Source: Clostridiales bacterium (lineage in GTDB: Bacteria; Bacillota; Clostridia; Oscillospirales; Oscillospiraceae). Taken from it: a stretch of 64,000 nt of DNA. Location of the stretch: contig JAAYJC010000038.1 of the NCBI GenBank assembly GCA_012523085.1, positions 62 to 64,061 on the forward strand. Reading direction: 5' to 3'. The notes under the pieces were generated by a model. The model had not been told where the DNA came from and searched no databases. It saw nothing but the letters and a program-made list of their open reading frames with translations. A program made the translations under genes and the position numbers. Below, piece after piece: positions 22,124 through 39,743 of the stretch (the stretch's first letter is position 1; each line of letters starts with the position of its first letter).

Positions 22124-22133
22124 GCCTTTACCA

Positions 22134-22177
22134 AAGGGGTTGATGCTTTGGTATGCATACCAAAGCATCAACCCCTT
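22134..22177. terminator. 44-nt perfect palindrome between convergent genes; bidirectional terminator
   Basis: AAGGGGTTGATGCTTTGGTATG / CATACCAAAGCATCAACCCCTT, followed by a T-rich tract (GTGCTATTTTTCGTTTTCG). Confidence 0.7.
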
Positions 22178-22180
22178 GTG

Positions 22181-22333
22181 CTATTTTTCGTTTTCGTCGA
22201 CATGTTCTTTGGCGTTTATCGTTTGCATCAAGCTGGGCTGTGATACATTGGTCGCCTGATTTATTTTCTCCCTGTTGGCCCAGGCGGCCGTTTTATGATT
22301 TTCAATCGGCTTTTTGGGTCTTTTTCTGATCAT
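22181..22333 (-). CDS. Small 50-aa protein, possibly DUF3787-like (not in the supplied ORF track, below the 60-aa cutoff)
   Basis: GGGTGG RBS, then ATG. Translation is MIRKRPKKPIENHKTAAWANREKINQATNVSQPSLMQTINAKEHVDENEK. The HxTAAWAN and WVDENEK-like ends are as I recall them for clostridial DUF3787 proteins. Confidence 0.4.
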   Translation of the reverse strand: MIRKRPKKPIENHKTAAWANREKINQATNVSQPSLMQTINAKEHVDENEK

Positions 22334-22567
22334 TTACCACCCTTCTTCGGTTTGGTGTGAGGCCGCTTCGGACAAGCGCCTGTTTGTATAGCATATGAGT
22401 ATCTCCCCCAAATATTCAATAAAGGGAACGCATTGGTTCAGTGCACATTAATTATATTGAAAAGATTTTAGCGGAAGATCCGGGGAATGCGCCGGAAAAA
22501 TTCGGATATACCTACACAGAATCAGATGACATCAGACAGACCTTATAAACCTCAAAGCCGATTATTA

Positions 22568-22596
22568 TTGACTTGTCCCGGAATGCATGGTAAAAT
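22568..22596 (+). promoter_or_regulatory. Strong sigma-A-type promoter with extended -10 (TTGACT-17-TGgTAAAAT) for the mod/Moco operon leader
   Basis: TTGACT at 22568-22573, a 17-nt spacer ending in TGG, TAAAAT at 22591-22596. Confidence 0.55.
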
Positions 22597-22609
22597 GAAT
22601 CAAATTTAA

Positions 22610-22730
22610 TCATTTCCGTGCCTTGCGGTCTAAGGGGAAACCTATGAACGTTTGGCCTGAGCCTTTGGGTTCACGGGGTCGCATCCGGAAACGGCGCGGC
22701 CTTCCCGTTTTGAGAAGGAGATAAGCTTCC
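22610..22730 (+). promoter_or_regulatory. Probable molybdenum-cofactor (Moco) riboswitch aptamer
   Basis: The leader contains ..AAGGGGAAACC..GGCCTGAGCCTTTGGG..CACGGGG..CCGGAAACGG (GAAA-loop hairpin)..GGCCTTCCCG..GAGAAGGAG. This resembles my memory of the Moco RNA motif. It lies between a promoter and an intrinsic terminator, upstream of modABC-moeA-moaA-moaC. Confidence 0.5.
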
Positions 22731-22823
22731 GTATCGGTGTATGCTGTCCGCTGCGGAATACGCATAAGCTCTTCCGGCATAATGCCGCTTTGCGTCAAAG
22801 CTGCTCTGCATGTTGCTAAACTG

Positions 22824-22864
22824 TGCAGTCTGTTTCTCAAAACAGGCTGCATTTTTATCTTTTG
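22824..22864 (+). terminator. Intrinsic terminator acting as the leader's expression platform (attenuator)
   Basis: 11-bp stem TGCAGTCTGTT / AACAGGCTGCA, a 6-nt loop, then TTTTTATCTTTT. It sits 39 nt before the modA start. Confidence 0.7.
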
Positions 22865-22902
22865 GTCTTCTGTGGTAAATACAAATGGAAAGGAAACGAA
22901 AA

Positions 22903-23712
22903 ATGAAAAGACCAATCGCTTTTCTTTTCACAATAGTAATGGTATTTGCACTGACAGCCTGCAAAAACGGCAAATCCCCGGCGGTCGAAGACGCGTCTGT
23001 CGAGCTGACCGTGTACGCGGCCGCTTCGCTGACCGAAACGCTGACTAAAGCGGCCGAGCTTTACAGGGAATCGGCGCCGAATGTCACTTTTACATTTACC
23101 TTCGACTCTTCCGGTACCCTGAAGACGCAAATTGCGGAGGGCGCGGACTGCGACATTTTCATTTCGGCGGCCCAAAAGCAAATGAACGAGATGGACATTA
23201 CATCAGATAAGAATACCGCGGGGCTGGATTTTGTGGATTCATCAACGCGCTTCAATATCGTAGAAAACAAGGTCGTGCTGGTCGTGCCGGACAATAACCC
23301 GGCCGGCATCGCATCCTTTGATGACATCGCCACGAAGGCTGTGTCTTTGCTTGCCATCGGAAACTCGGATGTGCCTGTCGGCCAGTACGCGCAGGAAGTT
23401 TTAATAAACATGGGTATCTTCGATCGGATCAGCGAAAAAATAACCTATGGCTCCAATGTCAAGGAACTCACCACCTGGGTCGGTGAAAACACGGTTGACT
23501 GCGGCATTGTTTACGCGACCGACGCGTATTCCGCAGGACTTCAGGTGATTGCCGAGGCTCCGGAGGGGATGCTGAACACACCGGTGCTGTATCCCGCCGC
23601 GGTATTGAAAACCGCAAAGAATCCCGGGGCGGCCAAAGCCTTTCTGGATTTCCTGAAAACAGACGCCTGCGCTGCCGTGTTTCAGGAAGTGGGCTTTTCC
23701 GTTCCGGGTTAA
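22903..23712 (+). CDS. modA: Molybdate ABC transporter substrate-binding lipoprotein
   Basis: MKRPIAFLFTIVMVFALTAC lipobox. The body has YAAASL..FDSSGTL..QI..GA..D.F.SA and VPVGQYA motifs typical of ModA. Confidence 0.9.
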   Translation: MKRPIAFLFTIVMVFALTACKNGKSPAVEDASVELTVYAAASLTETLTKAAELYRESAPNVTFTFTFDSSGTLKTQIAEGADCDIFISAAQKQMNEMDITSDKNTAGLDFVDSSTRFNIVENKVVLVVPDNNPAGIASFDDIATKAVSLLAIGNSDVPVGQYAQEVLINMGIFDRISEKITYGSNVKELTTWVGENTVDCGIVYATDAYSAGLQVIAEAPEGMLNTPVLYPAAVLKTAKNPGAAKAFLDFLKTDACAAVFQEVGFSVPG

Positions 23713-23792
23713 CGCCTGCTTTTCCGGTAAAAGCCGTTTGCGGCACGCTGATAATCAATCGCTTTATGCTCAAAGCCGAAGGAGGCGCTCTT

Positions 23793-24488
23793 ATGGACTG
23801 GTATCCCCTCATAAACTCGCTGAGAATCGCGCTGATATCGACTTTCATCACATTCTTTCTCGGTATCCTAGCGGCCTATTATATCGCCAAAACACCCAGG
23901 CTGATAAAGGGGATTCTGGATGTGATTCTGACCTTGCCTTTGGTTTTACCGCCAACGGTTATCGGGTTTTTTATCTTAAAGCTCATGGGGCCGAGGGGAC
24001 CGGTCGGCTCGCTGCTCTTCGATCTCTTTCAGACAAAGGTCGTCATGACCTGGTATTCCGCGATATTCGCGACGGTGATCATCACGTTTCCGCTGATGTA
24101 CCGCACAGTTCGCGGCGCGTTTGAGAGTTTTGACATGACGCTCAAATACGCGGGGCAGACGCTCGGACTCAGAAACACCTATATTTTCTGGCATATCATG
24201 ATGCCGTATTGCAAGCAGGGGATTATAGCCGGAACCGTTTTGAGCTTTGCCCGCGCGCTGGGCGAATACGGCGCGACAAGCATGGTGGCGGGCTATACAC
24301 CGGGAAAGACCGCAACGATCTCCACGACCGTATATCAGCTCTGGCGGACCGGAGACGATTTGCTTGCCTACAGGTGGGTTGCGATAAACGTTGCAATCTC
24401 CTTTGTCGTTTTGATTGCGATTAATTTCTTTGAACGAAACTATAAAAAGGCGGGCGGGAAACGCTCGCAGTATAATGGCCTTGCATAA
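23793..24488 (+). CDS. modB: Molybdate ABC transporter permease
   Basis: GAAGGAGG RBS. 231-aa polytopic protein with an EAA-like loop (FARALGEYGATSMVAG). Confidence 0.9.
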   Translation: MDWYPLINSLRIALISTFITFFLGILAAYYIAKTPRLIKGILDVILTLPLVLPPTVIGFFILKLMGPRGPVGSLLFDLFQTKVVMTWYSAIFATVIITFPLMYRTVRGAFESFDMTLKYAGQTLGLRNTYIFWHIMMPYCKQGIIAGTVLSFARALGEYGATSMVAGYTPGKTATISTTVYQLWRTGDDLLAYRWVAINVAISFVVLIAINFFERNYKKAGGKRSQYNGLA

Positions 24489-25581
24489 AACAGCAATAGG
24501 GCCGCACGGCATTCGGGGAGTGAGGATTCTGCTGAGCGTAGATATAAAGAAAAATCTGGGGAGCTTTAACCTGAACGTGTCCTTTGAAGCGGGAAATGAA
24601 ACGCTGGCGTTGCTCGGCGCCTCCGGCTGCGGCAAAAGCATGACGCTCAAATGTATCGCCGGTATAGAAAAGCCGGATGAGGGCCGCATTACGCTTGGCG
24701 GCAAAGTGCTGTTTGACGCGCAGAAGAACATCAATCTGTCGCCCAGGCTGAGAAGGGTCGGCTATCTGTTTCAGCAATACGCGCTATTTCCGAATATGAC
24801 GGTGCTGCGCAATGTTGTGACCGGTGTAAGGGATAACAATAAGGCGCAGGCAAGAAATAAGGCGCTCGAGGCGCTTGAGCTTATGCGCTTGACGGGATTT
24901 GAGGATAAGTATCCGCATCAGCTCTCCGGGGGAGAGCAGCAACGCGCCGCGCTGGCCAGGATTCTGGTCAACGAGCCTGAGATTTTGCTGCTTGATGAAC
25001 CGTTTTCCGCTCTTGACAGCTATTTAAGATGGCAGCTTGAGCTTGAACTGTCCCAGATCATGGCGTCATACGGCGGCACGGCTGTGTACGTTTCCCACAA
25101 CAGGGACGAGGTGTACAGGCTGTGTGACAGCGTCTGCGTTTTAACCGAAGGGCGGTCGGAGAAGAAAACCCGGGTGAGAGACTTGTTTGACGAGCCCGCT
25201 ACGCTTTCTGCCTGCCTTTTAACGGGCTGCAAAAATTATTCCAGGATTAAGAGACTTGATGACAATCTGTTGGAGGCTTTGGATTGGGGCACCGTTTTGA
25301 GGGTTTCAAAGCCGATAGGGCAAAATGCCGCCTATGTCGGCATGCGTGCGCACTATCTCAGACCGGTCGACAGCCCCGGCGAAAACACCGTCGAATGTAC
25401 GGTTGAGCGGGTTATCGAGGATGTTTTTTCCGTTGTGGTCATGCTGGGAACGCCGGGCGGAAAATCCGGTTACGCTCAGCTCAGGCTGGAAACGGGAAAG
25501 GATAAGTTGACCTCGTTTACACAATCGAATAAAATATTAATATATATGGACCCCGGGGATCTGATGGTACTAAAAGAATAA
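24475..25581 (+). CDS. modC: Molybdate ABC transporter ATP-binding protein with a C-terminal TOBE/Mop-like domain (exact start uncertain)
   Basis: Walker A GASGCGKS, signature LSGGEQQR, Walker B LLLDEP. ATG 24475 overlaps the modB stop, and a GTG at 24519 is an alternative start. Confidence 0.85.
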   Translation: MALHKTAIGPHGIRGVRILLSVDIKKNLGSFNLNVSFEAGNETLALLGASGCGKSMTLKCIAGIEKPDEGRITLGGKVLFDAQKNINLSPRLRRVGYLFQQYALFPNMTVLRNVVTGVRDNNKAQARNKALEALELMRLTGFEDKYPHQLSGGEQQRAALARILVNEPEILLLDEPFSALDSYLRWQLELELSQIMASYGGTAVYVSHNRDEVYRLCDSVCVLTEGRSEKKTRVRDLFDEPATLSACLLTGCKNYSRIKRLDDNLLEALDWGTVLRVSKPIGQNAAYVGMRAHYLRPVDSPGENTVECTVERVIEDVFSVVVMLGTPGGKSGYAQLRLETGKDKLTSFTQSNKILIYMDPGDLMVLKE

Positions 25582-25679
25582 AGCGTGATAAGCGTTTCAA
25601 CGCTTATCACGCTGGAAAAAATCGATTTGGCTGCCATATGTGGCGGCAGCCATTTGCTCCGCAAACCATCGATTTTTCC
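25582..25679 (+). repeat. Modular intergenic repeat, copy E (M1+M2), starting directly after the modC stop
   Basis: M1 is AGCGTGATAAGCG-TTTCAA-CGCTTATCACGCT. M2 is GGAAAAAATCGAT TTGGCTGCC..GGCAGCCA TTTGCtccGCAAA cc ATCGATTTTTCC. Confidence 0.75.
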
Positions 25680-25743
25680 GAGCCGGTACGAATTAAACGC
25701 GTTAACACGTTTTTCCCGATGTCTGTAGAAAATGGAGATTGGT

Positions 25744-26961
25744 ATGATCGAGAAAACAGAGATAGAAAAGGCCGTGGATATGCTGCTTTCTCTTCCCGCT
25801 CCGGTCGAAACGGAGACCGTACCGCTGTACGGCGCACTCGACCGTGTGCTGGCGGAGGACAGGTATGCCTCGGTGGCGATTCCCCCCTTTGACCGAAGCC
25901 CGTATGACGGCTATGCCTTCCGGGGGCAGGATACCGCATCGGCAACAAAATCTACGCCCGTGGAGCTGAACATTTCCGAGGAAATACCGGCCGGCAAGCT
26001 TCCCCGGTTTGAGATCACCGAGGGCATGGCGGCAAAGATCCTGACCGGCGCGCCGATTCCGAAGGGCGCCAACGCAACGATTAAATATGAGCTGACGAAA
26101 TTTACACAGGCGAAGGTCTGGATATCGGATCCCATTTTACCGAATACCGATATCGTGCGGGCCGGAGAAGACCTGAAGCTCGGCGCGCTGATTGCAAACA
26201 AAGGTACGGTTCTTATCGCGCCGCTTTTGGGACTGCTGGCCACCCAGGGGCTGAAGGATCTGCGCGTTTATAAAAAACCGCGGATTATCATCATCAATAC
26301 CGGTACCGAGCTTTTAGAACTCGGCGAGCCGCTTCACCCGGGCGCAATCTACAACAGCAGCTGCTATGCTCTGGCCGGGTATCTGAAAAAAGCCGGAGCG
26401 GAGCCTGTAAACGGCGGCGTTGTTGAGGACGATCCCGACGAGATCGCGCGGCGGATAGGGGAAGCTTTAGACAGCGCCGATATGGTCGTCACCACAGGCG
26501 GGGCCTCAGTGGGCGATTATGACTGGATTGCGACAGCGTCACAAAGGCTGGGCGCAAGTATATTATTCAATAAGGTTGCGATGAAGCCGGGCGGCTCAAT
26601 TGTGGCGTCGGAAAAGGACGGTAAGCTGATTCTGGGCCTTTCGGGAAATCCCGGGGCGGCTGCGCTCGGTCTTTTTCGCATCGCAATGCCGTATATCCTG
26701 AAATTATGCGGAAGATCGGACCTGATGCCGGAACAGGTCGAAGTGCTGTTAAAACAGCCGTTAAACAAGAAATCCCCAAACCGAAGACTGCTCCGGGGCA
26801 GACTGGAGAGAGATAACGGGCAGGCGTTTTTTGTTGATAATCCGGGTCAGGGCAACGGGACATTTTCCTCCCTTGTCAACTGTGACCTGATCGGCGAGGT
26901 GCCCGCCGGCAGCCCGCCGCTCCCTGCCGGAACAAAAATCAAAGCGTATAGAATCGGATAA
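25744..26961 (+). CDS. moeA: Molybdopterin molybdenumtransferase
   Basis: 405 aa with the full MoeA domain order and a GGASVGDYD motif. GGAG RBS. Confidence 0.9.
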   Translation: MIEKTEIEKAVDMLLSLPAPVETETVPLYGALDRVLAEDRYASVAIPPFDRSPYDGYAFRGQDTASATKSTPVELNISEEIPAGKLPRFEITEGMAAKILTGAPIPKGANATIKYELTKFTQAKVWISDPILPNTDIVRAGEDLKLGALIANKGTVLIAPLLGLLATQGLKDLRVYKKPRIIIINTGTELLELGEPLHPGAIYNSSCYALAGYLKKAGAEPVNGGVVEDDPDEIARRIGEALDSADMVVTTGGASVGDYDWIATASQRLGASILFNKVAMKPGGSIVASEKDGKLILGLSGNPGAAALGLFRIAMPYILKLCGRSDLMPEQVEVLLKQPLNKKSPNRRLLRGRLERDNGQAFFVDNPGQGNGTFSSLVNCDLIGEVPAGSPPLPAGTKIKAYRIG

Positions 26962-26990
26962 ATTAAATAGCGTACTTATGGAGAAAACAA

Positions 26991-27938
26991 ATGAGAGACC
27001 GGTTTAACAGAAACATAACCTACCTGCGGCTTTCCGTGACGGACTTGTGCAACCTCAGATGCGTGTATTGTATGCCGGAGACCGGCGTGCATAAAAAGAA
27101 ACACAGCGATATCCTGTCCGTGGAGGAAATCGAGGAAATGGCCCGTGCCTGCGTCGCGTGCGGGGTCAAAAAGATCCGGGTCACAGGCGGTGAACCTCTG
27201 GTACGGCGCGGCATAGAGGATATTTGCGCGCGCCTTTCCGCGATTGACGGCGTAGAGGAGCTGTGCATGACAACAAACGGCATCCTTCTGCCGAAATACG
27301 CGCAAAAGCTCAAAAAAGCGGGCGTTTTAAGGCTCAACATCAGCTTGGATACGCTAAACGCGGAAAAGTACAGGGCGATATCGCGCGTGGGGACATTAAA
27401 GGACGCGCTCAATGGGATAGAGGCCGCAAAGCAGGCCGGATTTTCCGATTTGAAGCTGAACGTCGTGCTGATGGGCGGCATAAATGATGATGAAATCCGG
27501 GATTTTGTACGCTTTGCGGGCGAACAGAGCATCGAGGTCCGCTTCATTGAGCTGATGCCGATCGGGGAATGCCGGACTTTTGATAAAAAGCGGTTCATCG
27601 AATCAAAAAAGGTTCTTGAAGCGACGCCCGAGCTGATAGAAAAATGCACAGAAGGCGTAGCGAGGATTTACAGCATACCGGACAGCAAAGGACAAGTCGG
27701 GCTCATCAGCCCGATGAGCACCCATTTTTGCCCCGGCTGCAACAGGATCAGGATCACCGGCGACGGCAAGCTCAAGCCGTGCCTGCACTCCTCCGAAGAA
27801 ATCAGCCTGCGCGGCCTGCACGGGGAGGCGCTCAAAGAAACCATCGGGGATGCGATGCGCAACAAGCCGCAGCGCCACCATCTGGATGCGAAAACACCCA
27901 GCGAGAGCCTGAGAACAATGAACGCTATCGGAGGCTAA
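26991..27938 (+). CDS. moaA: GTP 3',8-cyclase (radical SAM)
   Basis: The CNLRCVYCMP radical-SAM cluster motif, a C-terminal CPGCNRIRITGDGKLKPCL second-cluster region, and a terminal GG. Confidence 0.95.
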   Translation: MRDRFNRNITYLRLSVTDLCNLRCVYCMPETGVHKKKHSDILSVEEIEEMARACVACGVKKIRVTGGEPLVRRGIEDICARLSAIDGVEELCMTTNGILLPKYAQKLKKAGVLRLNISLDTLNAEKYRAISRVGTLKDALNGIEAAKQAGFSDLKLNVVLMGGINDDEIRDFVRFAGEQSIEVRFIELMPIGECRTFDKKRFIESKKVLEATPELIEKCTEGVARIYSIPDSKGQVGLISPMSTHFCPGCNRIRITGDGKLKPCLHSSEEISLRGLHGEALKETIGDAMRNKPQRHHLDAKTPSESLRTMNAIGG

Positions 27939-28050
27939 AGCGTGAAACAAGTTTCACGCTACGGAAAAATCGATTTGGCCGCCGTATGCGGTGGCGGCCA
28001 TTTGCTTCGCAAAGCATCGATTTTTCCCACGTCTTGAGCGTATGCACGCT
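27939..28050 (+). repeat. Modular intergenic repeat, copy F (M1+M2 plus a degenerate M1), starting directly after the moaA stop
   Basis: AGCGTGAAACAAGTTTCACGCT, then GGAAAAATCGAT TTGGCCGCC..GGCGGCCA TTTGCttcGCAAA gc ATCGATTTTTCC, then AGCGTATGCACGCT followed by a T-rich tract. Confidence 0.75.
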
Positions 28051-28099
28051 TTTCACGCTTTTTACTTGTTTTTTTATTTGTTGGATATGGAGGTAGGGT

Positions 28100-28615
28100 A
28101 TGGGAGAGTTTACGCATTTTAACGGCGAGGGTCGGGCGAAAATGGTCGATGTGAGCAAAAAGGAACCGACGCTGCGCACGGCGACGGCGGGCGGAACGGT
28201 TTTTCTGAGCACCGGTACGTTTTTGCTTGTGATAGAGGGTAAAATGAAAAAGGGCGATGTGCTTTCAGTCGCGCAGGTGGCGGGCATTATGGCGGCAAAA
28301 CGCACCGCCGAGCTGATTCCGATGTGCCACCCGATTGCCATTACGGGCGTTGACCTATCCTTTTCACCGGACGCTCAGACAAACAGCATCGGCATTACCG
28401 CCACCGTACGCTGTAAGGGCGAAACCGGAGTGGAAATGGAAGCGCTGACAGCCGTATCGGCAGCGGCGCTGACCATCTACGATATGTGCAAGGCGGTACA
28501 GAAGGATATTGTCATTTCCGATATCCGGCTTCTATCCAAAACAGGCGGGAAGTCGGGGGATTATATAAGCTCAACAGCTAAAGCTGAGATTAAAGATAAT
28601 GCAATGGGAGGTTAA
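28100..28615 (+). CDS. moaC: Cyclic pyranopterin monophosphate synthase
   Basis: 171 aa. MVDVS.K..T.R.A, IPMCHP and GVEMEALTA motifs are typical of MoaC. Confidence 0.95.
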
Positions 28616-28617
28616 CC

Positions 28618-29046
28618 ATGGCCAGCGTTACAGCAGTATGCATAAGTGAAAAAAAAGGCGTTCAGAAAAAGACGGTACCGGAGATTACGGTAAAGAAAAA
28701 CCATGGCATTGAGGGGGACGCGCACGCGGGCGACTGGCACCGCCAGATCAGCCTGCTCGGAGAAGAAAGCGTCGATAAGCTGAGAGATCTGATGCCCAAT
28801 ATTCCCGCGGGCGCTTTTGCGGAAAACATTCTGACCAAAGGCTTGATTCTATATCAGCTCCCGGTCGGAACCAGACTGAGGGTCGGTGAAACACTTCTCG
28901 AGGTCACACAGATCGGGAAGGAATGTCATATGAGCTGTGAGATACGCAAAAAAACCGGTGACTGCGTGATGCCGAGAGAGGGCGTCTTCGCCATCGTTCT
29001 GGAGGAAGGGACAATCCGTCCGGGTGACGAGATAACGGTGCTCTGA
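28618..29046 (+). CDS. MOSC domain-containing protein
   Basis: 142 aa, with a beta-barrel-type sequence (..HGIEGDAHAG..RQISLL..) and a conserved Cys region (GKECHMSCEI). Confidence 0.75.
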   Translation: MASVTAVCISEKKGVQKKTVPEITVKKNHGIEGDAHAGDWHRQISLLGEESVDKLRDLMPNIPAGAFAENILTKGLILYQLPVGTRLRVGETLLEVTQIGKECHMSCEIRKKTGDCVMPREGVFAIVLEEGTIRPGDEITVL

Positions 29047-30068
29047 TGAAAAAGATACGAGTTGAAGACGCGGTCGGTCAAACCCTCTGCCATGACATCA
29101 CCGCCATATTCGCGGATGGACAAAAAGGCGCCCGGTTCAAGCGCGGCCATGTGATCACCAAAGAGGATGTCCCGGTGATGCTCGATATCGGCAAGTACCA
29201 TGTGTTCGTATGGGAACCCGGCGTTGACGAGGTGCATGAGGACGACTGCGCTATTGCCCTGACCACAGCCATATCCGGGGATAACATCGTTTTTCAAGGC
29301 CCTTCGGAGGGCAAAATGTCGCTGAGTGCCGCGATTGACGGTATGTTTTTGGTAAACCGCGAAGCGCTTAGGGCAATAAACGCCGTTGACGATTTCACGG
29401 TCGCCTGCATACCGAATCATCAAAAGGTAAAGGCGGGTGACCAACTGGCGGGCGCGCGCATCGTTCCTTTGGTTACAAAACGCCGGAACCTGGAAAAGGC
29501 ATTGGGCATCGCACGCGAGAATTTCCCGGTTTTTTCTGTTCTGCCGTTTAAGCCGCTGAAATGCGGGATCATTATCACCGGCAGCGAGGTCTATTACGGA
29601 CGCATTGAAGACAGGTTTGAGCCTGTTATGAAAAGCAAATTGGCGGCCTACGGCGCTGATATTCTGGGCTTTGTCAAATGCCCGGACGATCTTTCCGTGA
29701 TCAGCGGAGCCATAAAAGACTTTATGGATAAAGACGCCGATCTGATTTTCCTGACCGGCGGCATGTCCGTTGACCCGGACGATCTTACCCCCACGTCAAT
29801 CCGGGAAAGCGGCGCGAAGGTCGTTACGCAGGGCGTGCCGATGCAGCCCGGCAACATGCTGATGATGGCATATCTCGGCAAGACGATGTTGCTCGGCGTA
29901 CCCGGCGCTTCGATGCACTTCCCGATCACGAGCCTTGATACCTTCTTGCCGCGCATATTCGCGGGCATTGAGATCAAAAAAGAGGATATCGCCGGGCTGG
30001 GCGAGGGCGGCCTTTGCATGTGCTGCAAGGTCTGCCATTATCCTACCTGTTATTTCGGCAGAGGATAA
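29046..30068 (+). CDS. Molybdopterin-binding (MoCF-biosynthesis domain) protein, MoeA-related, with a C-terminal Cys-rich tail
   Basis: 340 aa with a GGMSVDPDDLTP MoCF_biosynth-type motif. The tail is GGLCMCCKVCHYPTCYFGRG. Confidence 0.7.
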   Translation: MKKIRVEDAVGQTLCHDITAIFADGQKGARFKRGHVITKEDVPVMLDIGKYHVFVWEPGVDEVHEDDCAIALTTAISGDNIVFQGPSEGKMSLSAAIDGMFLVNREALRAINAVDDFTVACIPNHQKVKAGDQLAGARIVPLVTKRRNLEKALGIARENFPVFSVLPFKPLKCGIIITGSEVYYGRIEDRFEPVMKSKLAAYGADILGFVKCPDDLSVISGAIKDFMDKDADLIFLTGGMSVDPDDLTPTSIRESGAKVVTQGVPMQPGNMLMMAYLGKTMLLGVPGASMHFPITSLDTFLPRIFAGIEIKKEDIAGLGEGGLCMCCKVCHYPTCYFGRG

Positions 30069-30120
30069 TGCTACAGCGCTTCAGCGCTATGCGCTGAAGC
30101 GCTGTAGCATCGATTTTTCC
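30069..30120 (+). repeat. Modular intergenic repeat, copy G (variant 19-bp hairpin plus the right arm of M2), starting directly after the stop codon
   Basis: TGCTACAGCGCTTCAGCGC-TAT-GCGCTGAAGCGCTGTAGCA, immediately followed by (A)TCGATTTTTCC. Confidence 0.6.
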
Positions 30121-30167
30121 CGGAATGGGCGTATCGGATAAATTGCTAAATGCAAGGAGGGGTGCCT

Positions 30168-30665
30168 GTGAGCAGGTACAGTGCGGCCGTCATCACGGTA
30201 AGCGACAAAAGTTATCAAGGCCAAAGGGAGGATTTAGCCGGCCCTATGGTCAGAACAATGCTGGAAGAGGCGGGCTTTGAGGTAAAATATACATCGATTG
30301 TACCCGATGAGAAAGACTTAATCGAGCGGGAGCTTATCCACACGGCGGACAGCCTTGATATTGCTTTGACCGTCGCGACCGGCGGCACGGGCTTTTCAAA
30401 GCGCGATGTGACCCCGGAGGCGACCGAATCGGTATGTCAGCGCATGACGCCCGGTATCCCGGAAGCCATGCGCTATGAAAGCTCGAAGATCACGAACCGC
30501 GCAATGCTCTCTCGCGCAGCAGCCGGCATCCGCGGCAATACGCTGATCATCAATCTGCCCGGCAGCCCAAAGGCCGCCAGGGAAAACCTTTGTGCGGTGC
30601 TCCCCGCGCTTGAGCACGGTTTGGACATGCTGCGCTCCGCCCCCCGCGACCACGAAACCGAATAA
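30168..30665 (+). CDS. mog: Molybdenum cofactor biosynthesis protein MogA/MoaB (MPT adenylyltransferase type)
   Basis: AAGGAGG, then GTG at 30168. AAVITVSDK, TGGTGFS.RD.TPEA and NLPGSP motifs. Confidence 0.85.
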   Translation: MSRYSAAVITVSDKSYQGQREDLAGPMVRTMLEEAGFEVKYTSIVPDEKDLIERELIHTADSLDIALTVATGGTGFSKRDVTPEATESVCQRMTPGIPEAMRYESSKITNRAMLSRAAAGIRGNTLIINLPGSPKAARENLCAVLPALEHGLDMLRSAPRDHETE

Positions 30666-30704
30666 TACGCTTGTGTCGCGGGTTTAAAACATAATCAGCC
30701 CAAC

Positions 30705-30751
30705 AAAAAGGGCGCCGCAAAATGCACAGGCCATTTTGCGGCGCCCTTTTT
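30705..30751. terminator. Bidirectional rho-independent terminator between convergent operons
   Basis: AAAAAGGGCGCCGCAAAATG / CATTTTGCGGCGCCCTTTTT, with A and T tracts on either side. Confidence 0.8.
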
Positions 30752-30758
30752 GAGCTGC

Positions 30759-31715
30759 TTACATAAGAAAGCCAAGGTCGATGCGGCCATTGCTGGTAAA
30801 GACATTCAGATCCTTCGTGCCGCCGCCCATATTAGACGGCAATGTGCTGCTCCCGTTGCTGGTTCGGGACTTGACGTTGAAGGTCCTCAGGCTGTCGTCA
30901 ATCTGCCCGCTGATTTTACCGTTGGAGGAAACCAGCCTGATTGATGAACCTGAAAACAGATGCTCGACATGAATGCCGCTGTTGCTGCTCTCCAGCGCAA
31001 CATTTTGCTCGGCTCTGACATTTATAGCTTCAATTTTGCCGTTGGAGGTCCGGGCGGATATCTCGCCTGCCTTCAAACCGGTAAGAGCCAGGCGTCCGTT
31101 GGCGCTTTTCAAAGAAAGCAGTTTGCCGATGGTCATGTTTTCGACGGTTATCCGGCCGTTGGAGGTCTTCAGGGCAAGACTTCCTGAAACATCAACGCCG
31201 CCGGATGAAATCGACCCGTTTGTTGTCTCCAGCGTCAGGCTCCCAAAGTATGTCTTCGGAATGCCGAGCGTAAACGGCCTGAACGCGTAGTTAAAGCCGA
31301 ACAGCCCGGACCACTTCCTGAGAATCTCGCAGCGGATGACCAGTTCTTCCGATTGGCTGAGATCGATATGATAGGCCTTGTAGCTGCTTTCATAATAGTC
31401 CAGTGTGATCAAATCGCTGTCAGAGCAGACAAGCCTTACCGGAGAATTGACATCCTTGAGAAAAATGGCGCGAACCCGGGACGCTAAATAACTGTTCTGC
31501 CTCATGTCTTTAAGTTCTGTTTGCATGGGTACCAGCGAGTTTGCAACCGATTCAACGCTCTCCATACCGGCGACCGCTTCCTTTTCACTCATGCCGTCCT
31601 CTATGCGGTCGTCAATGATTTCGGAAAAGTAGCCGATTGTGCGCTCGACCTCCTCCGGCGGCAGATTGGATATCATGCCGCGCAATTGGTTTAGAAACTC
31701 AGCCTTTGTCATCAT
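30759..31715 (-). CDS. DUF1700 (N-terminal) / DUF4097 (C-terminal beta-repeat) protein, partner of a PadR regulator
   Basis: MMTKAEFLNQLRGMISNLPPEEVERTIGYFSEIIDDRIEDGMSEKEAV is DUF1700-like. The C-terminal half is made of SNG(R/K)I... repeats typical of DUF4097. Confidence 0.75.
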   Translation of the reverse strand: MMTKAEFLNQLRGMISNLPPEEVERTIGYFSEIIDDRIEDGMSEKEAVAGMESVESVANSLVPMQTELKDMRQNSYLASRVRAIFLKDVNSPVRLVCSDSDLITLDYYESSYKAYHIDLSQSEELVIRCEILRKWSGLFGFNYAFRPFTLGIPKTYFGSLTLETTNGSISSGGVDVSGSLALKTSNGRITVENMTIGKLLSLKSANGRLALTGLKAGEISARTSNGKIEAINVRAEQNVALESSNSGIHVEHLFSGSSIRLVSSNGKISGQIDDSLRTFNVKSRTSNGSSTLPSNMGGGTKDLNVFTSNGRIDLGFLM

Positions 31716-31869
31716 AAAAACCCCCATTCTGCCGCGAAGCGGCGGCACAAATAGTCAGGAAAAATCGATTGTGCGAAACGCGATACAAGTATCGCGCCTG
31801 CAAATGGCGGCCAAATCGATTTCTTCCGTGCGTGAAAGTACATTCACAGCGTGAAAGCACTTTCACGCT
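31716..31869 (-). repeat. Modular intergenic repeat, copy B (2x M1 + M2 + M3), filling the whole PadR-DUF1700 spacer
   Basis: Minus-strand reading begins T-AGCGTGAAAGTGCTTTCACGCT, which overlaps the PadR TAG stop. It continues GTGAATGTACTTTCAC, GGAAGAAATCGAT...ATCGATTTTTCC, TGACTATTTGTGCCGCCGCTTCGCGGCAGAATGGGGG, TTTTT, ATG. Confidence 0.8.
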
Positions 31870-32182
31870 ACCCCCCGTCAATGATATAGTGATAGACATC
31901 CATTACCGTTTTCCATTCCTCTAGAAATGCTTTGATGCGCTCTTCACCGGCCTTCGTTATCCGGTAATATTTTCTGAGTCTTCCGTTGTGCTCTTTGGAA
32001 AAAACAATCAGGCATCCTCCGGATTCCAGCCGCTTCAAAATCGGATATAATGTCGATTCGGAGATTTCGATCACAGAGCTTAAATCCTTGATGATCTTGT
32101 ATCCGTAAGATTCCTCGTTTCTGAGTACGGTAAGAACACATACCTCCAATAGTCCCCGTTTCAGCTGCGGATCCATGTGCAT
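31868..32182 (-). CDS. PadR family transcriptional regulator
   Basis: 104 aa. LLEVCVLTVL..ESYGYKI...STLYPILKRLE..G is the classical PadR wHTH. Confidence 0.9.
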   Translation of the reverse strand: MHMDPQLKRGLLEVCVLTVLRNEESYGYKIIKDLSSVIEISESTLYPILKRLESGGCLIVFSKEHNGRLRKYYRITKAGEERIKAFLEEWKTVMDVYHYIIDGG

Positions 32183-32374
32183 ACCTCCCTTTGCGCAATA
32201 CTATACACCACATAGCATACTCTGTCAAGCGCAAAACGCTTTTTTACACAAGCAATTTATGCAAAAATGCGTTGTATTCATTTGTTATGGAAAAACGAAC
32301 GCATTTATGCTAGAATCGATAAAAGACGGCAACAGGTTCGGTTAAACGATAATAAAACCGGCGAGGTTATTAGC

Positions 32375-33055
32375 ATGAGGATGAGAAGAAAGAAAAATCT
32401 GAACCAGAGAATCGAGAGGGCGTCCTCCGTTCTGGTCAAAGAGCCGCAGGCAAATAAGGGGTGCTGGCGTCGGACGCTGCCCGGCTGCCGTGAGGTGTTT
32501 ATCGAGCTGGGGTGCGGAAGGGGAAAATTCACGGCAGAAACCGCACAGGCGATGCCGGACATTGCGCTCATCGCCATCGAACGGAACAAAGACGCGCTGG
32601 TTATGGCGATGGAACGCGCGCTTTCAGCCGAATTGCGAAACCTCCGGTTTGTCTGCGCGGACGTATTTTTTATAGAAGAACTGTTTGGGCCGGGAGAAAT
32701 AGACAGGATCTACATCAATTTCTGCGACCCCTGGCCGGGCAAAAGGCATGAAAAGCGAAGGCTGACGGCGCCGGCGTTTCTCACGCGCTACCGGTCCGTG
32801 CTCAGGCAAAACGGAGAAATACATTTCAAAACGGACAACCGTGAGCTTTTTGATTATACGGTTTATACCATGAAGGAAAACGGATTTTTGCTCAATATGG
32901 TATCGGAAAACCTGCATGAAAACGAGGTTAACGGCATTATGACCGATTACGAGGAGAAGTTTCACCGGGAAGGCAAACCGATTTATATGCTGACCGCGCA
33001 AAACGGCGCAGGGTCCGGCAAAGTACATACAACGATTGGGGAGGCGGCCGAATGA
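32375..33055 (+). CDS. trmB: tRNA (guanine-N7)-methyltransferase
   Basis: 226 aa from MRMRRKKN. ELGCGRG.F SAM motif, then FCDPWP and K.RH.KRRL motifs. Confidence 0.85.
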   Translation: MRMRRKKNLNQRIERASSVLVKEPQANKGCWRRTLPGCREVFIELGCGRGKFTAETAQAMPDIALIAIERNKDALVMAMERALSAELRNLRFVCADVFFIEELFGPGEIDRIYINFCDPWPGKRHEKRRLTAPAFLTRYRSVLRQNGEIHFKTDNRELFDYTVYTMKENGFLLNMVSENLHENEVNGIMTDYEEKFHREGKPIYMLTAQNGAGSGKVHTTIGEAAE

Positions 33056-33807
33056 AACTGCTGTCATGGAACGTAAACGGGCTGAGAGCCTGTGTGAAAA
33101 AAGGCTTCGGTGATTTTTTTGATGAGATCGACGCCGATATATTCTGTGTTCAGGAAACAAAGCTTCAGGAAGGCCAGATTGAGCTTTATACGCCGGAGCA
33201 TCTGCAGTATTGGAACTCCGCCGAGAAGAAGGGGTATTCCGGCACGGCGGTGTTTTCAAAATACCAGCCCGAAGCCGTAACGCTGGGGCTCGGCATTGAG
33301 GTGCATGACAAGGAAGGCAGGGTCATAACGCTCGATTACGGTGATTTCTTTCTGGTAAATGTCTATACGCCCAACACGCAGGACGCGCTGAAGCGGCTTT
33401 CGTACCGTATGATATGGGAGGACGCGTTCAGAGAATATGTGACCGGGCTTCAGCAGCAAAAACCCGTTATCATCTGCGGGGATCTGAATGTCGCGCACAA
33501 TGAAATCGATCTGAAAAACCCGAAAACAAACAGGCGCAACGCGGGTTTTACCGACGAAGAGCGCGAAAAGTTTTCGCTTCTGCTTGCGCATGGATTTACC
33601 GATACATTCAGACATCTGTATCCCGATACGACCGGGGCATATACATGGTGGTCTTATATGAATAATGCCCGAAAAAACAATGCAGGATGGCGAATCGATT
33701 ATTTCCTGACGTCCGACAAGCTGAACGCGCAGATAAAGGAAGCGACGATTTACGCCGATATTTTCGGCTCGGATCACTGTCCTGTCGGGCTTGAAATTTC
33801 ATGGTAA
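33052..33807 (+). CDS. xth: Exodeoxyribonuclease III
   Basis: MKLLSWNVNGLRA, CVQETK, GDLNVAHNEIDL and SDHCPV motifs. 4-nt overlap with trmB. Confidence 0.95.
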   Translation: MKLLSWNVNGLRACVKKGFGDFFDEIDADIFCVQETKLQEGQIELYTPEHLQYWNSAEKKGYSGTAVFSKYQPEAVTLGLGIEVHDKEGRVITLDYGDFFLVNVYTPNTQDALKRLSYRMIWEDAFREYVTGLQQQKPVIICGDLNVAHNEIDLKNPKTNRRNAGFTDEEREKFSLLLAHGFTDTFRHLYPDTTGAYTWWSYMNNARKNNAGWRIDYFLTSDKLNAQIKEATIYADIFGSDHCPVGLEISW

Positions 33808-34772
33808 GCATCGGCGGGGTAAAGATCCGGGGCCGGCTTGTCCTTGCACCGATGGCCGGAGTCACCGATTTTGCTTTCAGGATCGTCTGCAGGCAGCAGG
33901 GGGCGGCGCTGGCCTATACCGAAATGGTCAGCGCGAAGGCGCTGGTGTATAAGGACGCGAAAACAAAATCGCTTTTGATGCGCGATGAAAATGACGCGCC
34001 GCTTTGCGCGCAGATTTTCGGCAGCGAGCCCGACACGATGGCCGAGGCGGCCGTATTGGCCGCCGGAATATCCGGCTGCGAAATTCTGGATATCAATATG
34101 GGTTGCCCGACGGGTAAGATCGTAAAAAACGGGGATGGTTCGGCCTTGATGCGAAACCCGCAGCTATGTGGGCGCATCATCGAAGCCGTCTGCGGGGCGG
34201 TCAGCATACCGGTGACGGTCAAAATGCGAAAAGGCTGGGACAAGAGCGAAAGTAACGCCGTCATGCTCGCTGTGATTGCCGAGGAAGCGGGCGCCGCGGC
34301 CATTACCGTCCACGGAAGGACAAGGGCTCAGCTGTATTCGGGTCAGGCGGACTGGGATATCATCGCAAAGGTAAAACAGGCCGTCAAGATCCCTGTCATC
34401 GCCAACGGCGATGTGTTTGAGCCGGAGGATGCCGTCCGGATACTGTGCCATACCGGCGCCGATCTGGTGATGATCGGACGCGGGGCTATGGGAAACCCGT
34501 GGTTATTCAGGCGCGCCGAAGCCGCTGTTAATGGAGAAGGCATTTTGCCGCTTCCGCCGCTTTCGGTCCGATTGGATACGGCAATGCGGCAGTTCAGATT
34601 GGCAGCGGAAAGAAAAGGCGAGAAAATTGCCTGCCTGGAAGCCAGGAAACACTATGCATGGTATTTGCGCGGCGTTGCGCACGCTTCATACTTCAAAAAT
34701 AAAATTGCGAAAGCGGAAACGCTCGGCGAGTTAGCGGACATAACCGAGGGGATTAAACGGGAACTGAGGTGA
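33801..34772 (+). CDS. tRNA dihydrouridine synthase (DusB-like)
   Basis: LAPMAGVTD..FR, INMGCP, HGRT and NGD motifs. 323 aa. Confidence 0.9.
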   Translation: MVSIGGVKIRGRLVLAPMAGVTDFAFRIVCRQQGAALAYTEMVSAKALVYKDAKTKSLLMRDENDAPLCAQIFGSEPDTMAEAAVLAAGISGCEILDINMGCPTGKIVKNGDGSALMRNPQLCGRIIEAVCGAVSIPVTVKMRKGWDKSESNAVMLAVIAEEAGAAAITVHGRTRAQLYSGQADWDIIAKVKQAVKIPVIANGDVFEPEDAVRILCHTGADLVMIGRGAMGNPWLFRRAEAAVNGEGILPLPPLSVRLDTAMRQFRLAAERKGEKIACLEARKHYAWYLRGVAHASYFKNKIAKAETLGELADITEGIKRELR

Positions 34773-34776
34773 AAAA

Positions 34777-35388
34777 GTGACCCGGGATAAAGAAATGCAA
34801 ATCATCCGGCGTGTTCTGGATGGCCATATAAACGACTTTGAAGCGCTTGTTCTCGATAATCAGAAAAAGGTCTATAATCTTGCGCTGAAAATGACGAAAA
34901 ACACGGAAGACGCATATGATATATCGCAGGAAGCTTTCATAAAGGCCTATAACGCGCTGAAAAATTTCCGGGGTGACAGCAGCTTCGGGGTATGGATTTA
35001 CCGGCTGACCTCAAATTTGTGTATTGACTTTCTGCGCAGGGAAAAGAAACGGAAAACATCCCCGCTGGTTTACATAAATGACTCGAACACCGAACAGGAG
35101 ATTGAGATATCGGATGTCAGCTACGAGCCTGAGGCGCTCTATGAAAAAGCGGAAATCAGGCAGGCCATAAGCGATGGGTTAGAGAAGCTTCCGGAGGATC
35201 ACAGGCAGGTTTTAATTTTGCGGGAGCTCGGCGGCCTGAGTTATGCGGAGATCGCGGAGACGCTGAATCTGGAAATCGGAACGGTGAAATCCAGGATATT
35301 CAGGGCGAGATCAAATCTTGTAAAGTATCTTTCAGCGCAAGGAAACTTTTTTTGCAAAGCATCGTCAAAAGAGAAGAAAGGAGAGTGA
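34777..35388 (+). CDS. ECF-type RNA polymerase sigma-70 family factor
   Basis: GAGGTGA RBS, then GTG. Region 2 (DAYDISQEAFIKAY) and region 4 (LSYAEIAETLNLEIGTVKSRIFRAR). Confidence 0.85.
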   Translation: MTRDKEMQIIRRVLDGHINDFEALVLDNQKKVYNLALKMTKNTEDAYDISQEAFIKAYNALKNFRGDSSFGVWIYRLTSNLCIDFLRREKKRKTSPLVYINDSNTEQEIEISDVSYEPEALYEKAEIRQAISDGLEKLPEDHRQVLILRELGGLSYAEIAETLNLEIGTVKSRIFRARSNLVKYLSAQGNFFCKASSKEKKGE

Positions 35389-35393
35389 GATGC

Positions 35394-36856: not shown

Positions 36857-36858
36857 AT

Positions 36859-37024: not shown

Positions 37025-37033
37025 CCTGAACGC

Positions 37034-38727: not shown

Positions 38728-38740
38728 CGGAGGTGCCGCT

Positions 38741-39688: not shown

Positions 39689-39743
39689 TCCGCCGGCGGA
39701 CGCAGGATATAATCCCCAAAAACAGACAGGGAGTGAATGATCG

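Follow-up and report, generated by a model that had tools for sequence, protein, structure and literature searches.

The stretch of DNA analysed here, a window of 64 kb, carries a mod/moa (Moco) operon; its host is an uncultured Oscillospiraceae bacterium from anaerobic digesters. Sequence and gene calls place the end of modC at 25581 and the start of moeA at ATG 25744, the end of moaA at 27938 and the start of moaC at 28100, and the end of the MoCF gene at 30068 and the start of mog at GTG 30168. The gaps modC|moeA, moaA|moaC and MoCF|mog are therefore 162, 161 and 99 nt long, exactly as given in a first-pass annotation of this DNA, and in all three, which hold the elements named E, F and G, a hairpin begins at the first base past the stop codon, where that annotation had placed the start of the repeat copies. 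The known regulator of the operon is a Moco riboswitch (Rfam RF01055) at 22602-22736, upstream of modA, which scores 63.8 bits where the gathering score is 36. While E, F and G resemble it in being structured RNA of the same operon, the riboswitch is a separate element at a separate place; an Rfam search of E, F and G gave no match to RF01055, and no Rfam family was matched by the elements even at E <= 10.

Element E opens with module M1 (25582-25613, + strand), a perfect 32-nt hairpin, AGCGTGATAAGCGTT / AACGCTTATCACGCT, which follows the modC stop codon without any intervening base and has one substitution in a 99.4%-identical strain. It is followed by module M2 (25614-25679, + strand), a three-branch unit identified from sequence, fold, RNAalifold and covariance model R1 (89.8 bits), in which P1 is GGAAAAAATCGAT/ATCGATTTTTCC with one bulged A, P2 is TTGGCTGCC/GGCAGCCA and P3 is TTTGC-TCC-GCAAA. 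Sequence and gene calls assign the rest of the gap (25680-25743, + strand) to a non-repeat spacer and the moeA ribosome-binding site AATGGAGA. Element F is built similarly, with an M1 of 22 nt (AGCGTGAAA-CAAG-TTTCACGCT; 27939-27960, + strand) immediately adjoining the moaA stop codon, and a perfect three-branch M2 (27963-28027, + strand; RNAfold, RNAalifold and covariance model R1, 97.3 bits). A degenerate second M1-type unit (28037-28059, + strand), AGCGT-ATGC-ACGCT and then TTTCACGCT, is followed 3' by a fast-evolving spacer and the moaC ribosome-binding site. In both elements M2 is a 65-nt unit with a P1 of 12 bp, a P2 of 8-9 bp and a P3 of 5 bp (RNAfold); the three-branch fold previously drawn on paper was thus reproduced by RNAfold in E and F, with an identical RNAalifold consensus. 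Fold z-scores were -3.8 and -4.2 for M2 alone (E and F) and -5.7 with M1 included.

Element G differs. Directly after the MoCF stop lies a perfect 41-nt palindrome (30069-30109, + strand) with a stem of 19-20 bp and a 3-nt loop (-45 kcal/mol, z = -7.6), unrelated in sequence to M1 and M2 and matched weakly by R1 (20.4 bits, E = 0.03). The sole part in common with M2 is the adjoining TCGATTTTTCC (30110-30120, + strand), an 11-nt 3' arm of P1 that gives a T-run 3 nt past the hairpin. Hence, the claim that all three gaps are filled by repeat copies holds for E and F, which carry a full M2, but G contains a fragment, the 3' P1 arm behind an unrelated hairpin.

The repeat family in the window

Repeat finding, fuzzy pattern scans and covariance model R1 resolved three modules: M1, a 20-32-nt hairpin of consensus AGCGTGAAA-N4-TTTCACGCT; M2, a 65-nt unit with closing 12-bp arms GGAAAAATCGAT/ATCGATTTTTCC; and M3, a hairpin plus GGAGG that bears a ribosome-binding site and ends just ahead of a start codon. 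With one mismatch allowed, the 64-kb window has 9 occurrences of GGAAAAATCGAT, the motif of the P1 arm, as compared to 0.92 expected, and none of 100 shuffles reached 9.

Seven family loci lie within the 64 kb, namely E, F, G and four beside unrelated genes. In copy A (3655-3764, + strand), an M1 (3655-3675) is followed by a short M2 that lacks P3 (3678-3722), then by a CGACTATT linker and an M3 (hairpin plus GGAG, 3736-3759), and the copy ends 0 nt ahead of the URO-D-like gene that starts at ATG 3765. A copy with M3 but no M2 (11524-11614, - strand) has three M1-type hairpins in tandem and separates an SRAP gene from one for an Rsm22-like methyltransferase. Copy H (31717-31869, - strand) separates padR from a HAAS/DUF4097 gene and is made up of two M1 units, an M2, a TGACTATT linker and an M3; its M1 overlaps the padR stop codon, and its M2 is without the 3' arm of P2 and has a P3 loop interrupted by the insertion of an M1-like hairpin. 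The last copy, M1 plus M3 (57586-57637, - strand), lies directly ahead of ATG 57584 of a LysM/GH18 gene. The combination of modules thus varies between loci, and the sites are spacers of co-directional genes in which the repeats always have the sense orientation.

The absence of the 3' arm of P2 from H and of P3 from A shows that the three-branch architecture is not family-wide, and since P2 and P3 are each missing in one member, the complete M2 fold is dispensable. The truncated or rearranged copies G, A and H look like products of decay. All five M2 cases, counting the fragment in G, are in sense orientation, and the non-Watson-Crick pairs on the sense strand comprise nine G.U and three A.C (one-sided p = 0.07); together, the orientation and the G.U excess hint that the RNA sense strand is at work.

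Occurrence in related genomes

A relative (L170/L185) is syntenic over window positions 22568-35702 at 75-81% nucleotide identity, and the alignment breaks where the window has E, F, G and H, at 25583|25727, 27939|28086, 30063|30183 and 31728|31872. All four elements are missing there; the relative's own gaps are 23, 77 and 33 nt, and its padR and HAAS genes overlap. L171/L172 likewise lack the elements of the Moco operon, copy A has an empty site in L174-L179, where the whole of about 100 nt is missing, and pattern and covariance-model scans found no modules in about 45 kb of the element-lacking relatives. On the other hand, copy H is present in a 98%-identical strain (L180), and F is retained in L168/L169, whose MoaA is 92% identical. 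Judged from these alignments, the copies were inserted after the split from the relatives at 76-81% nucleotide identity and before the split from the MoaA-92% relative, and by the same measure the family is young and lineage-specific. In the next relatives, the corresponding gaps of the syntenic Moco operon are thus free of the elements. The elements are not specific to the Moco operon, nor are they a feature of it that separates transport genes from biosynthesis genes, as proposed in the first-pass annotation, since the same modules stand beside the URO-D-like, Rsm22-like, padR/HAAS and LysM/GH18 genes.

Conservation and covariation of the hairpins

The double substitution in P2 that had been noted between the copies does preserve pairing (U-A in E, C-G in F, at alignment columns 19/35), and the P3 loops do differ (TCC in E, TTC in F). 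Of the seven differences between E and F, more fall outside the stems, with 5 of 15 unpaired versus 2-3 of 50 paired positions changed (Fisher p = 0.013); only two of the stem differences are true changes, and they make up one compensating pair. Between F and its orthologue in L168/L169, M2 is identical at 62 of 65 positions (95%) and its stems at 49 of 50, as compared to a divergence at four-fold sites of 24% in moaA, 24% in moeA and 13% in moaC; depending on the rate used, one change or none among 50 stem positions would have a probability of 2e-5 to 8e-3. The spacer adjoining F is about 60% identical. In the M1 of F, 5 of 22 positions are changed, four of them forming two compensating pairs.

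Across ten M1 hairpins, 90% of the alignment cells are paired, with two covarying pairs whose score was reached by 14 of 500 shuffles, while slid controls pair at 20-50%. The four full M2 sequences yield one covarying pair, which is not significant; because 128 of 500 shuffles reach its score, the P2 compensatory change, a single event, is not distinguishable from chance. The view that the pattern reflects selection on structure is thus borne out in part: the hairpins are maintained and the changes between E and F are mostly unpaired, but R-scape-type covariation support for P2 and P3 is absent from the sequences available. The hairpins have been kept since insertion.

Copying within the family could contribute to these patterns. 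At the place of F's degenerate second unit, L168/L169 carry a near-intact second M1, and both M1 units flanking M2 have an identical CGCGAAAC...GTTTCGCG variant, suggesting concerted evolution. The compensating changes could accordingly represent replacement from another family copy instead of selected point mutations, and the low divergence of M2 could be due to gene conversion toward the family consensus.

Discussion

With a probability of roughly 60%, we consider E, F and G to be local copies of lineage-specific, mosaic intergenic palindromic repeats that exert a generic effect at the mRNA level. Since the family also lies between unrelated genes, this would be punctuation of the REP/BOX type and not a molybdenum-specific regulator. 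Because the elements are located inside operons, they are presumably transcribed within the mRNA. By analogy, very stable hairpins 0 nt past stop codons would act like the REP/BIME elements of E. coli: they may be barriers to 3'-to-5' exonucleases, stabilising the upstream segment, or partial terminators, most plausibly in G, where the hairpin is followed by a U-run, and a hairpin at most 15 nt past the stop codon may damp translation termination of the upstream gene. One of these roles, 3'-end barrier, partial terminator or translation damper, probably applies, and it is reasonable to propose that the elements make the stability or processing of the mRNA differ between its segments. In this way, modABC, moeA-moaA, moaC-MOSC-MoCF and mog would be uncoupled in their expression, an effect generic to any site at which the repeat lands and involving no molybdenum-specific control.

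It is doubtful, in our view, that the elements represent mobile DNA of a purely selfish or neutral kind, MITE-like or REP-like and moved by a transposase encoded elsewhere in the genome. The hairpins would then persist only through transposition machinery recognising folded single-stranded DNA or terminal inverted repeats, or as self-templating palindromes, and the Moco-operon copies would count as passengers lacking any host-selected effect. Filled and empty sites between relatives, the 12-bp terminal inverted arms of M2, the unrelated neighbour genes and the mosaic, truncated and nested copies (G, A, and H with a hairpin inside P3) would all fit such an origin, as would the M1 variant shared by the two units that flank M2 in the relative, which suggests copy-to-copy conversion. 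However, a fixed passenger should drift neutrally, whereas M2 of F has remained 95% identical beside four-fold divergence of 13-24% and a spacer of 60% identity. Moreover, F differs from its orthologue at three positions but from E, in the same genome, at seven, which argues against strong within-genome homogenisation. Inspection of the copies revealed no target-site duplication, domain scans covering 50 of the 56 window ORFs with 90 aa or more detected neither a transposase nor a RAYT domain, and every copy is in sense orientation in a co-directional gap.

Improbable, too, is that the elements are terminators or attenuators that split the cluster into transcription units, the hairpin and a AUCGAUUUUUCC tail stopping RNA polymerase and the downstream genes relying on read-through or internal promoters. 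In a consensus scan, the 20-bp perfect hairpin of G followed by CGATTTTTCC headed the terminator-like list, in every M2 copy and in G the best-conserved piece is the T-run arm ATCGATTTTTCC, and a promoter-like TTGACC-17-TAAAAT (25507-25535) lies just upstream of E. Nevertheless, E and F are not canonical intrinsic terminators, since their U-run pairs with the A-run of P1 and is at least 7 nt from the nearest GC-rich hairpin. The U-run of G is only 5 U long and 3 nt from the stem, the consensus scan found no promoter-like site ahead of either moaC or mog, and full termination at the M3 copies immediately ahead of start codons would silence the gene.

Hardly credible is a Moco-specific cis-regulatory RNA, riboswitch-like or protein-binding, that coordinates molybdate transport with cofactor synthesis: although three copies lie in one operon within 4.5 kb and the M2 fold is a compact three-way junction, this junction has almost no unpaired nucleotides for a ligand pocket, and the proposal is contradicted by the same modules adjoining at least four unrelated gene sets, by their absence in the orthologous Moco operons of the nearest relatives and by the canonical Moco riboswitch already present in the operon.

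Punctuation by generic repeats also has parallels in known systems. Neisserial REP2 brings a promoter and a ribosome-binding site just upstream of start codons, comparable to M3, and the co-transcribed Correia (NEMIS) elements, which possess terminal inverted repeats, alter the processing of mRNA (PMC3184786, PMC2229807); however, their hosts are Proteobacteria, the sequences are unrelated, and neither the TA target duplications nor the IHF site of Correia elements was found here. BOX elements of Streptococcus pneumoniae (boxA-boxB(n)-boxC, with RUP and SPRITE) share with our family a Gram-positive host, a modular build with optional or repeated middle modules and a strong predicted RNA structure, and they are transcribed together with adjacent genes, whose expression they can modulate (PMC3184786, citing Knutsen 2006 and Croucher 2011). 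In contrast, the BOX sequences are unrelated, the modules here are shorter, and nothing comparable to the IS mobilisation proposed for BOX was found.

The REP/BIME elements of Enterobacteriaceae and Pseudomonas are likewise short imperfect palindromes, extragenic yet inside transcription units and often directly past stop codons, and form mosaics of variable composition with other short motifs, with a lineage-specific distribution. They influence mRNA stability (Delihas 2011, PMC3184786) and lower translation of the upstream gene when less than 16 nt from a stop codon (work reviewed in PMC12306157). Our family shows no sequence similarity to them, occurs in a Firmicute (Oscillospiraceae), is without a consistent 5' GTAG and without a RAYT gene in the window, carries M1 units in tandem and not in alternating orientation, and includes with M3 a module bearing a ribosome-binding site; its copy number (seven loci) is from 64 kb only. 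The bcr1-bcr18 repeats of the Bacillus cereus group are intergenic repeats of Firmicutes as well, some of them MITE-like, whose distribution is not conserved between close strains and whose cruciform RNA fold is kept by compensatory changes (PMC3184786, PMC3446304). About half of the bcr copies are transcribed in UTRs or operons (PMC3184786, PMC3446304), including operons of B. cereus, where segmental mRNA decay is common (PMC3446304). The sequences are unrelated, and bcr1 is about 155 bp long with flanking 5-bp direct repeats, which were not seen here. In conclusion, the repeats are best read as a new family of intergenic, co-transcribed elements belonging with those of the REP/BIME, BOX or bcr type.

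Structured Gaps of the Moco Operon

Pfam assignment, with start codons refined using gene calls on near-identical contigs, identified a molybdate-uptake and molybdenum-cofactor (Moco) operon composed of modA (22903-23712), modB (23793-24488), modC (24475-25581), moeA (25744-26961), moaA (26991-27938), moaC (28100-28615), a MOSC-domain gene (28618-29046), a MoCF_biosynth gene encoding 340 aa (29046-30068) and a mog/moaB-like gene (30168-30665). The long internal gaps of the operon measure 162, 161 and 99 nt, as described in the first-pass annotation, and in each of the three a hairpin starts immediately after the stop codon. Upstream of modA, a Moco riboswitch (RF01055; 22602-22736, +) scored 63.8 bits (gathering score 36) and was the sole Rfam match to reach the threshold of its family, and a terminator-like hairpin followed by a T-run is located 3' of it (22823-22852). 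This riboswitch, which had gone unmentioned in the first-pass annotation, is the known molybdenum-specific control of the operon. A promoter-like TTGACC-17-TAAAAT site (25507-25535, +; 10/12 matches) was also observed in the 3'-terminal part of modC, a short way ahead of the first gap (element E), and could give rise to a separate moeA-moaA transcript carrying E in its 5' UTR.

All three gaps had been interpreted as filled by repeat copies, which holds for E (modC|moeA) and F (moaA|moaC), whereas G (MoCF|mog) is a fragment. Element E consists of a hairpin module M1 (25582-25613), here a perfect hairpin of 32 nt, followed by the three-branch module M2 (25614-25679), while F consists of M1 (27939-27960), M2 (27963-28027) and a degenerate second M1 (28037-28059). 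In contrast, G is a perfect 41-nt palindrome (30069-30109) unrelated to M1 and M2, followed by TCGATTTTTCC, the 11 nt that form its only piece in common with M2. The proposed fold of M2 into stems P1, P2 and P3 was reproduced by RNAfold, and RNAalifold returned the same consensus; fold z-scores against dinucleotide shuffles were -3.8 to -4.2 for M2 alone, -5.7 for M1 and M2 together and -7.6 for G.

The module family was defined by repeat finding, fuzzy pattern scans and direct reading of the sequence. M1 has the consensus AGCGTGAAA-N4-TTTCACGCT, M2 is bounded by 12-bp arms (GGAAAAATCGAT / ATCGATTTTTCC), and a third module, M3, is a hairpin (CTGCCGC-TTC-GCGGCAG) with AATGGAGG behind it and a start codon 4-5 nt further on. 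The P1 arm motif occurs nine times in the window compared to 0.9 expected, and approximately ten M1-type hairpins were found at seven intergenic loci in 64 kb. The modules are present as M1 alone, M1+M2, M1+M3, M1+M2+M3, tandem M1 and, in one case, a hairpin inserted within the loop of P3 in M2. In the window, a covariance model derived from the four full M2 sequences matched only E, F and two copies elsewhere (A and H), with G as a weak match.

Copies Beside Unrelated Genes

Copy A (3655-3764, +), composed of M1, a short M2 without P3, and M3, precedes a URO-D-like gene within an ABC-transporter operon. Three M1 and one M3 (11524-11614, -) separate an SRAP gene from the gene for an Rsm22-like methyltransferase, and M1 with M3 precedes a LysM/GH18 gene (57586-57637, -). 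Copy H (31717-31869, -), between padR and a HAAS/DUF4097 gene, contains two M1, M2 and M3, and its M2 is missing the 3' arm of P2 and has its P3 loop occupied by an M1-like hairpin. M3 is thus found before the start codons of four unrelated genes, at 3736-3764 (+), 11524-11551 (-), 31717-31744 (-) and 57586-57613 (-), and since its hairpin is followed by AATGGAGG 4-5 nt before each start codon, the repeat itself supplies the ribosome-binding site. Two differences in copy H were seen in a 98%-identical strain (L180 457-525, corresponding to 31758-31826 of the window), one of them a substitution that gives the nested hairpin a sense-strand G.U in place of an A-U pair.

All seven loci are in spacers between co-directional genes and none in the nine convergent or divergent spacers of the window. 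M2 is sense-oriented in 5 of 5 cases (two-sided p = 0.06), a count restricted to M2 as the ribosome-binding site fixes the orientation of M3 and M1 is nearly palindromic. An A.C pair on the sense strand is a G.U pair on the antisense strand, and the non-Watson-Crick pairs of M1, M3 and the nested hairpin of H comprise nine G.U on the sense strand and three A.C (one-sided p = 0.07). Orientation and G.U bias are suggestive of the transcribed sense strand acting as RNA, neither being decisive.

Very long hairpins, perfect or nearly so, occupy the convergent gaps at 8516-8692, 30666-30758 and 36857-37033, the last with three hairpins in series (-105 kcal/mol). Their sequences bear no relation to those of M1 and M2, and they are probably bidirectional terminators. 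The repeat family is absent from all spacers of the dcw cluster, which is complete (mraZ to ftsQ, 38212-49917) and closed by two tandem ftsZ paralogues (50088-51221 and 51406-52536), each with Tubulin and FtsZ_C domains. Elsewhere in the window, an ORF of 1494 aa (17639-22123, +) combines a metallophosphoesterase domain with SLH domains and contains three internal tandem repeats of approximately 800 nt (18603-20411; 67-78% identity over a 201-nt reference stretch).

The Elements Are Insertions Into a Compact Operon

The same strain (97.8-99.9% nt identity; L162-L167 and L180-L184) was recovered on short contigs from anaerobic-digester metagenomes and is, save for three single substitutions, too close to inform. 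MoaA homologues pointed to Oscillospiraceae, with Sporobacter termitidis and Oscillibacter sp. PC13 approximately 62-64% identical, and relatives were recovered in three grades, at 92% MoaA identity, 75-81% nucleotide identity and 75% MoaA identity. Element F is present at the same place in the closest grade (L168 and L169). The intermediate grade, represented by L170 and by the 29-kb contig that underlies L185, keeps the same gene order from modA as far as an ECF sigma factor gene (window 22568-35702; 75-81% nt identity), and its alignment to the window is interrupted at 25583|25727, 27939|28086, 30063|30183 and 31728|31872, the places occupied by E, F, G and H. At those places these contigs have gaps of 23, 77 and 33 nt, and their HAAS gene is overlapped by padR. 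Moreover, no elements were found in the contigs with 75% MoaA identity (L171-L173), where the gaps are 60 and 58 nt. The absence of E, F, G and H from L170/L185 and L171/L172 shows that they are insertions into a pre-existing compact operon.

The site of copy A is likewise empty in a separate set of relatives (L174-L179; URO-D-like protein at least 90% identical, 76-82% nt identity), in which ...GTGTGAA|ATATG corresponds to ...GCGTGAA, about 100 nt of insert and ATATG in the window. Comparison of the empty and filled sites of copy A revealed no target-site duplication, and when every copy was inspected by eye, neither M2 nor the whole composite was flanked by a direct repeat, whether in E, F, A, H or the orthologue of F. 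Approximately 45 kb recovered from relatives more distant than L168/L169 contained no module; as the modules are missing in relatives at about 80% and F is present in the relative at 92%, the family spread between those two splits.

Wider searches gave no further members. A scan of JGI metagenome contigs anchored on the P1 arms returned 47 loci, none with an M2 interior, indicating that the family is not detectable in that collection with perfect arms, and viral contigs gave no match to either the M2 5' half or M3. The 17-mer AAATCGATTTGGCYGCC gave 114 chance matches in unrelated taxa against 596 Gb of genome contigs, the pattern being too short.

Maintenance of the Structure

The first-pass annotation had read a double change in P2 between E and F as a product of selection on structure. 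This change is real, a U-A pair in E being C-G in F, as are the differences between the P3 loops. The independent copies recovered are too few to give covariation in M2 statistical support: among the four full copies 97% of cells pair and 1 of 25 M2 pairs covaries, a level reached by 128 of 500 column shuffles. A lone compensatory change between two palindromic repeat copies is weak evidence for a dedicated RNA function.

Other observations tell more about whether the structure is maintained. Between E and F, 5 of 15 unpaired but 2 of 50 paired positions differ, the real stem changes being the compensating pair (Fisher test p = 0.013, with a paired count of 3 when a one-base bulge is added). 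Compared to its orthologue in the 92% relative, M2 of F is identical at 62 of 65 positions, with two changes in loops and one at the base of P1, whereas four-fold degenerate sites differ at 33/136 positions in moaA, 37/155 in moeA and 10/77 in moaC. The spacer just 3' of this M2 shows only 60% identity with indels, after which conservation returns at the ribosome-binding region. Finding no more than one change among 50 stem positions has a probability of 2e-5 at a rate of 24% and of 8e-3 at a rate of 13%, and at least one copy, F, is thus evolving far slower than neutral sites. F is also closer to its orthologue than to E within the same genome, which favours constrained vertical inheritance and argues against strong within-genome homogenisation.

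M1 of F differs from its orthologue at 5 of 22 positions, four of which are accounted for by two compensating pair changes (G-C to A-U, U-A to C-G). Across the ten M1-type hairpins 90% of cells pair, compared to only 20-50% in slid-partner controls on the same alignment, and 2 of 9 pairs covary with a score reached by 14 of 500 shuffles, again among few independent copies. In the relative, the M1 units on either side of M2 share the variant CGCGAAAC..GTTTCGCG, and part of the compensation may thus represent copy-to-copy replacement rather than paired point mutation. In L168 (2001-2118) and L169 (1181-1298), M2 was observed between two nearly identical M1 variants (ACGCGAAACACGTTTCGCG), the downstream unit of the window being degenerate. 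These patterns hint at copy-to-copy conversion between M1 units.

Two other functions were considered for parts of the elements. A small peptide starting from the ATG of the P2 loop, which opens ORFs in E and F, was rejected since this ATG is ACG in the orthologue. M1 is unlikely to be a transcription-factor operator (GTGAAA-N4-TTTCAC, Rex/CRP-like), as its half-sites change symmetrically in the relative (GTGAAA to GCGAAA and TTTCAC to TTTCGC), so that pairing is kept and base identity lost; the half-site spacing is presumably also unlike that of Rex or CRP-type consensus sites.

The main alternative is that the repeats are purely selfish or neutral DNA, as their presence/absence pattern, terminal inverted arms and decayed copies would suggest. 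However, this explanation is at odds with how slowly M2 evolves at its fixed locus, with the lack of target duplications and with the lack of a transposase among the 50 window ORFs scanned, which make it unlikely, albeit the strongest competitor.

Possible Roles in Operon mRNA

The hairpins of E, F, G and H are very stable and begin at 0 nt from the stop codon or overlap it, while the M3-bearing copies adjoin start codons and provide GGAG. REP/BIME elements affect mRNA stability and are bound by gyrase, Pol I and IHF (Delihas, 2011; PMC3184786). By analogy with such repeats, the hairpins would be transcribed within the operon mRNA and may block 3'-to-5' exonucleases, and those within 15 nt of the stop codon may stall terminating ribosomes and thereby lower the output of the upstream gene.

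Element G, a 20-bp stem followed by CGAUUUUUCC, was first in the list of terminator-like scan matches; it passes the consensus scan, with its U5 run starting 3 nt past the stem as opposed to the 0-2 nt of a terminator, and a fraction of transcripts could be terminated there. E and F also combine stable hairpins with a U-run, but because this run is paired inside P1 and does not adjoin a GC-rich stem they are not canonical terminators, and it is unlikely that they terminate transcription fully. A Moco-specific RNA is contradicted by the elements' other neighbour genes, which are unrelated in function, and by the absence of the elements from the Moco operons of relatives. No curated Rfam family was found for the elements at the gathering threshold or at E <= 10; over E, F and G (22000-32500, E <= 10) only miRNA and sRNA models appeared, far below threshold. 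The annotation is thereby corrected: the structured gaps of the Moco operon are generic repeat insertions, and specific control lies with the upstream Moco riboswitch.

A more far-reaching and decidedly improbable reading is that the M1-M2-M3 mosaic is a domesticated, still-spreading intercistronic cassette, a portable unit whose insertion would give the upstream cistron a hairpin protecting its 3' end and the downstream cistron a 5' hairpin with a Shine-Dalgarno sequence. The structured M2 spacer would be bound or cut by an RNase or by a protein that binds RNA, and purifying selection would maintain its sequence for that role. This Oscillospiraceae lineage would then re-tune operon stoichiometry by transposing ready-made mRNA punctuation.

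Comparison With Known Repeat Families

As in REP/BIME elements, M1 is a short (about 20-40 nt) imperfect palindrome repeated outside coding regions of the 64-kb window, and its combinations with M2 and M3 correspond to mosaic clusters with other short motifs. The bases before M1 (TAA-A, TAA-A, GGT-A, GTT-A and GTA-A) include no consistent 5' GTAG, the consensus AGCGTGAAA..TTTCACGCT seems unlike that of E. coli REP, and a scan of 50 of the 56 window ORFs revealed no Y1_Tnp (RAYT) domain. MITEs are resembled in the terminal inverted repeats, represented by the 12-bp arms of M2, and in the presence/absence polymorphism at orthologous sites, which is shown by E, F, G, H and A, with F present in L168/L169. 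M3 recalls the RBS-bearing REP2 of Neisseria as well as the 5' stabiliser hairpins of Firmicutes.

Most noteworthy is the constraint on the sequence of M2, taken together with the portable 3' hairpin/RBS arrangement, through which the family could be a clean system for studying the domestication of such repeats as operon punctuation. Its one slow-evolving orthologous copy is a concrete case for asking whether repeats are co-opted to set gene-by-gene expression within operons. Moreover, the analysis adds a modular REP/BOX/bcr-type family from a little-studied lineage of uncultured Oscillospiraceae that occurs in anaerobic digesters. The target-site duplication of MITEs was not found, and we describe the family as apparently working like REP/BIME, BOX and bcr elements and claim no membership in any of these named families. 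In conclusion, this is a new, lineage-restricted repeat family, and the finding is ordinary in kind, as elements of this kind are well known.
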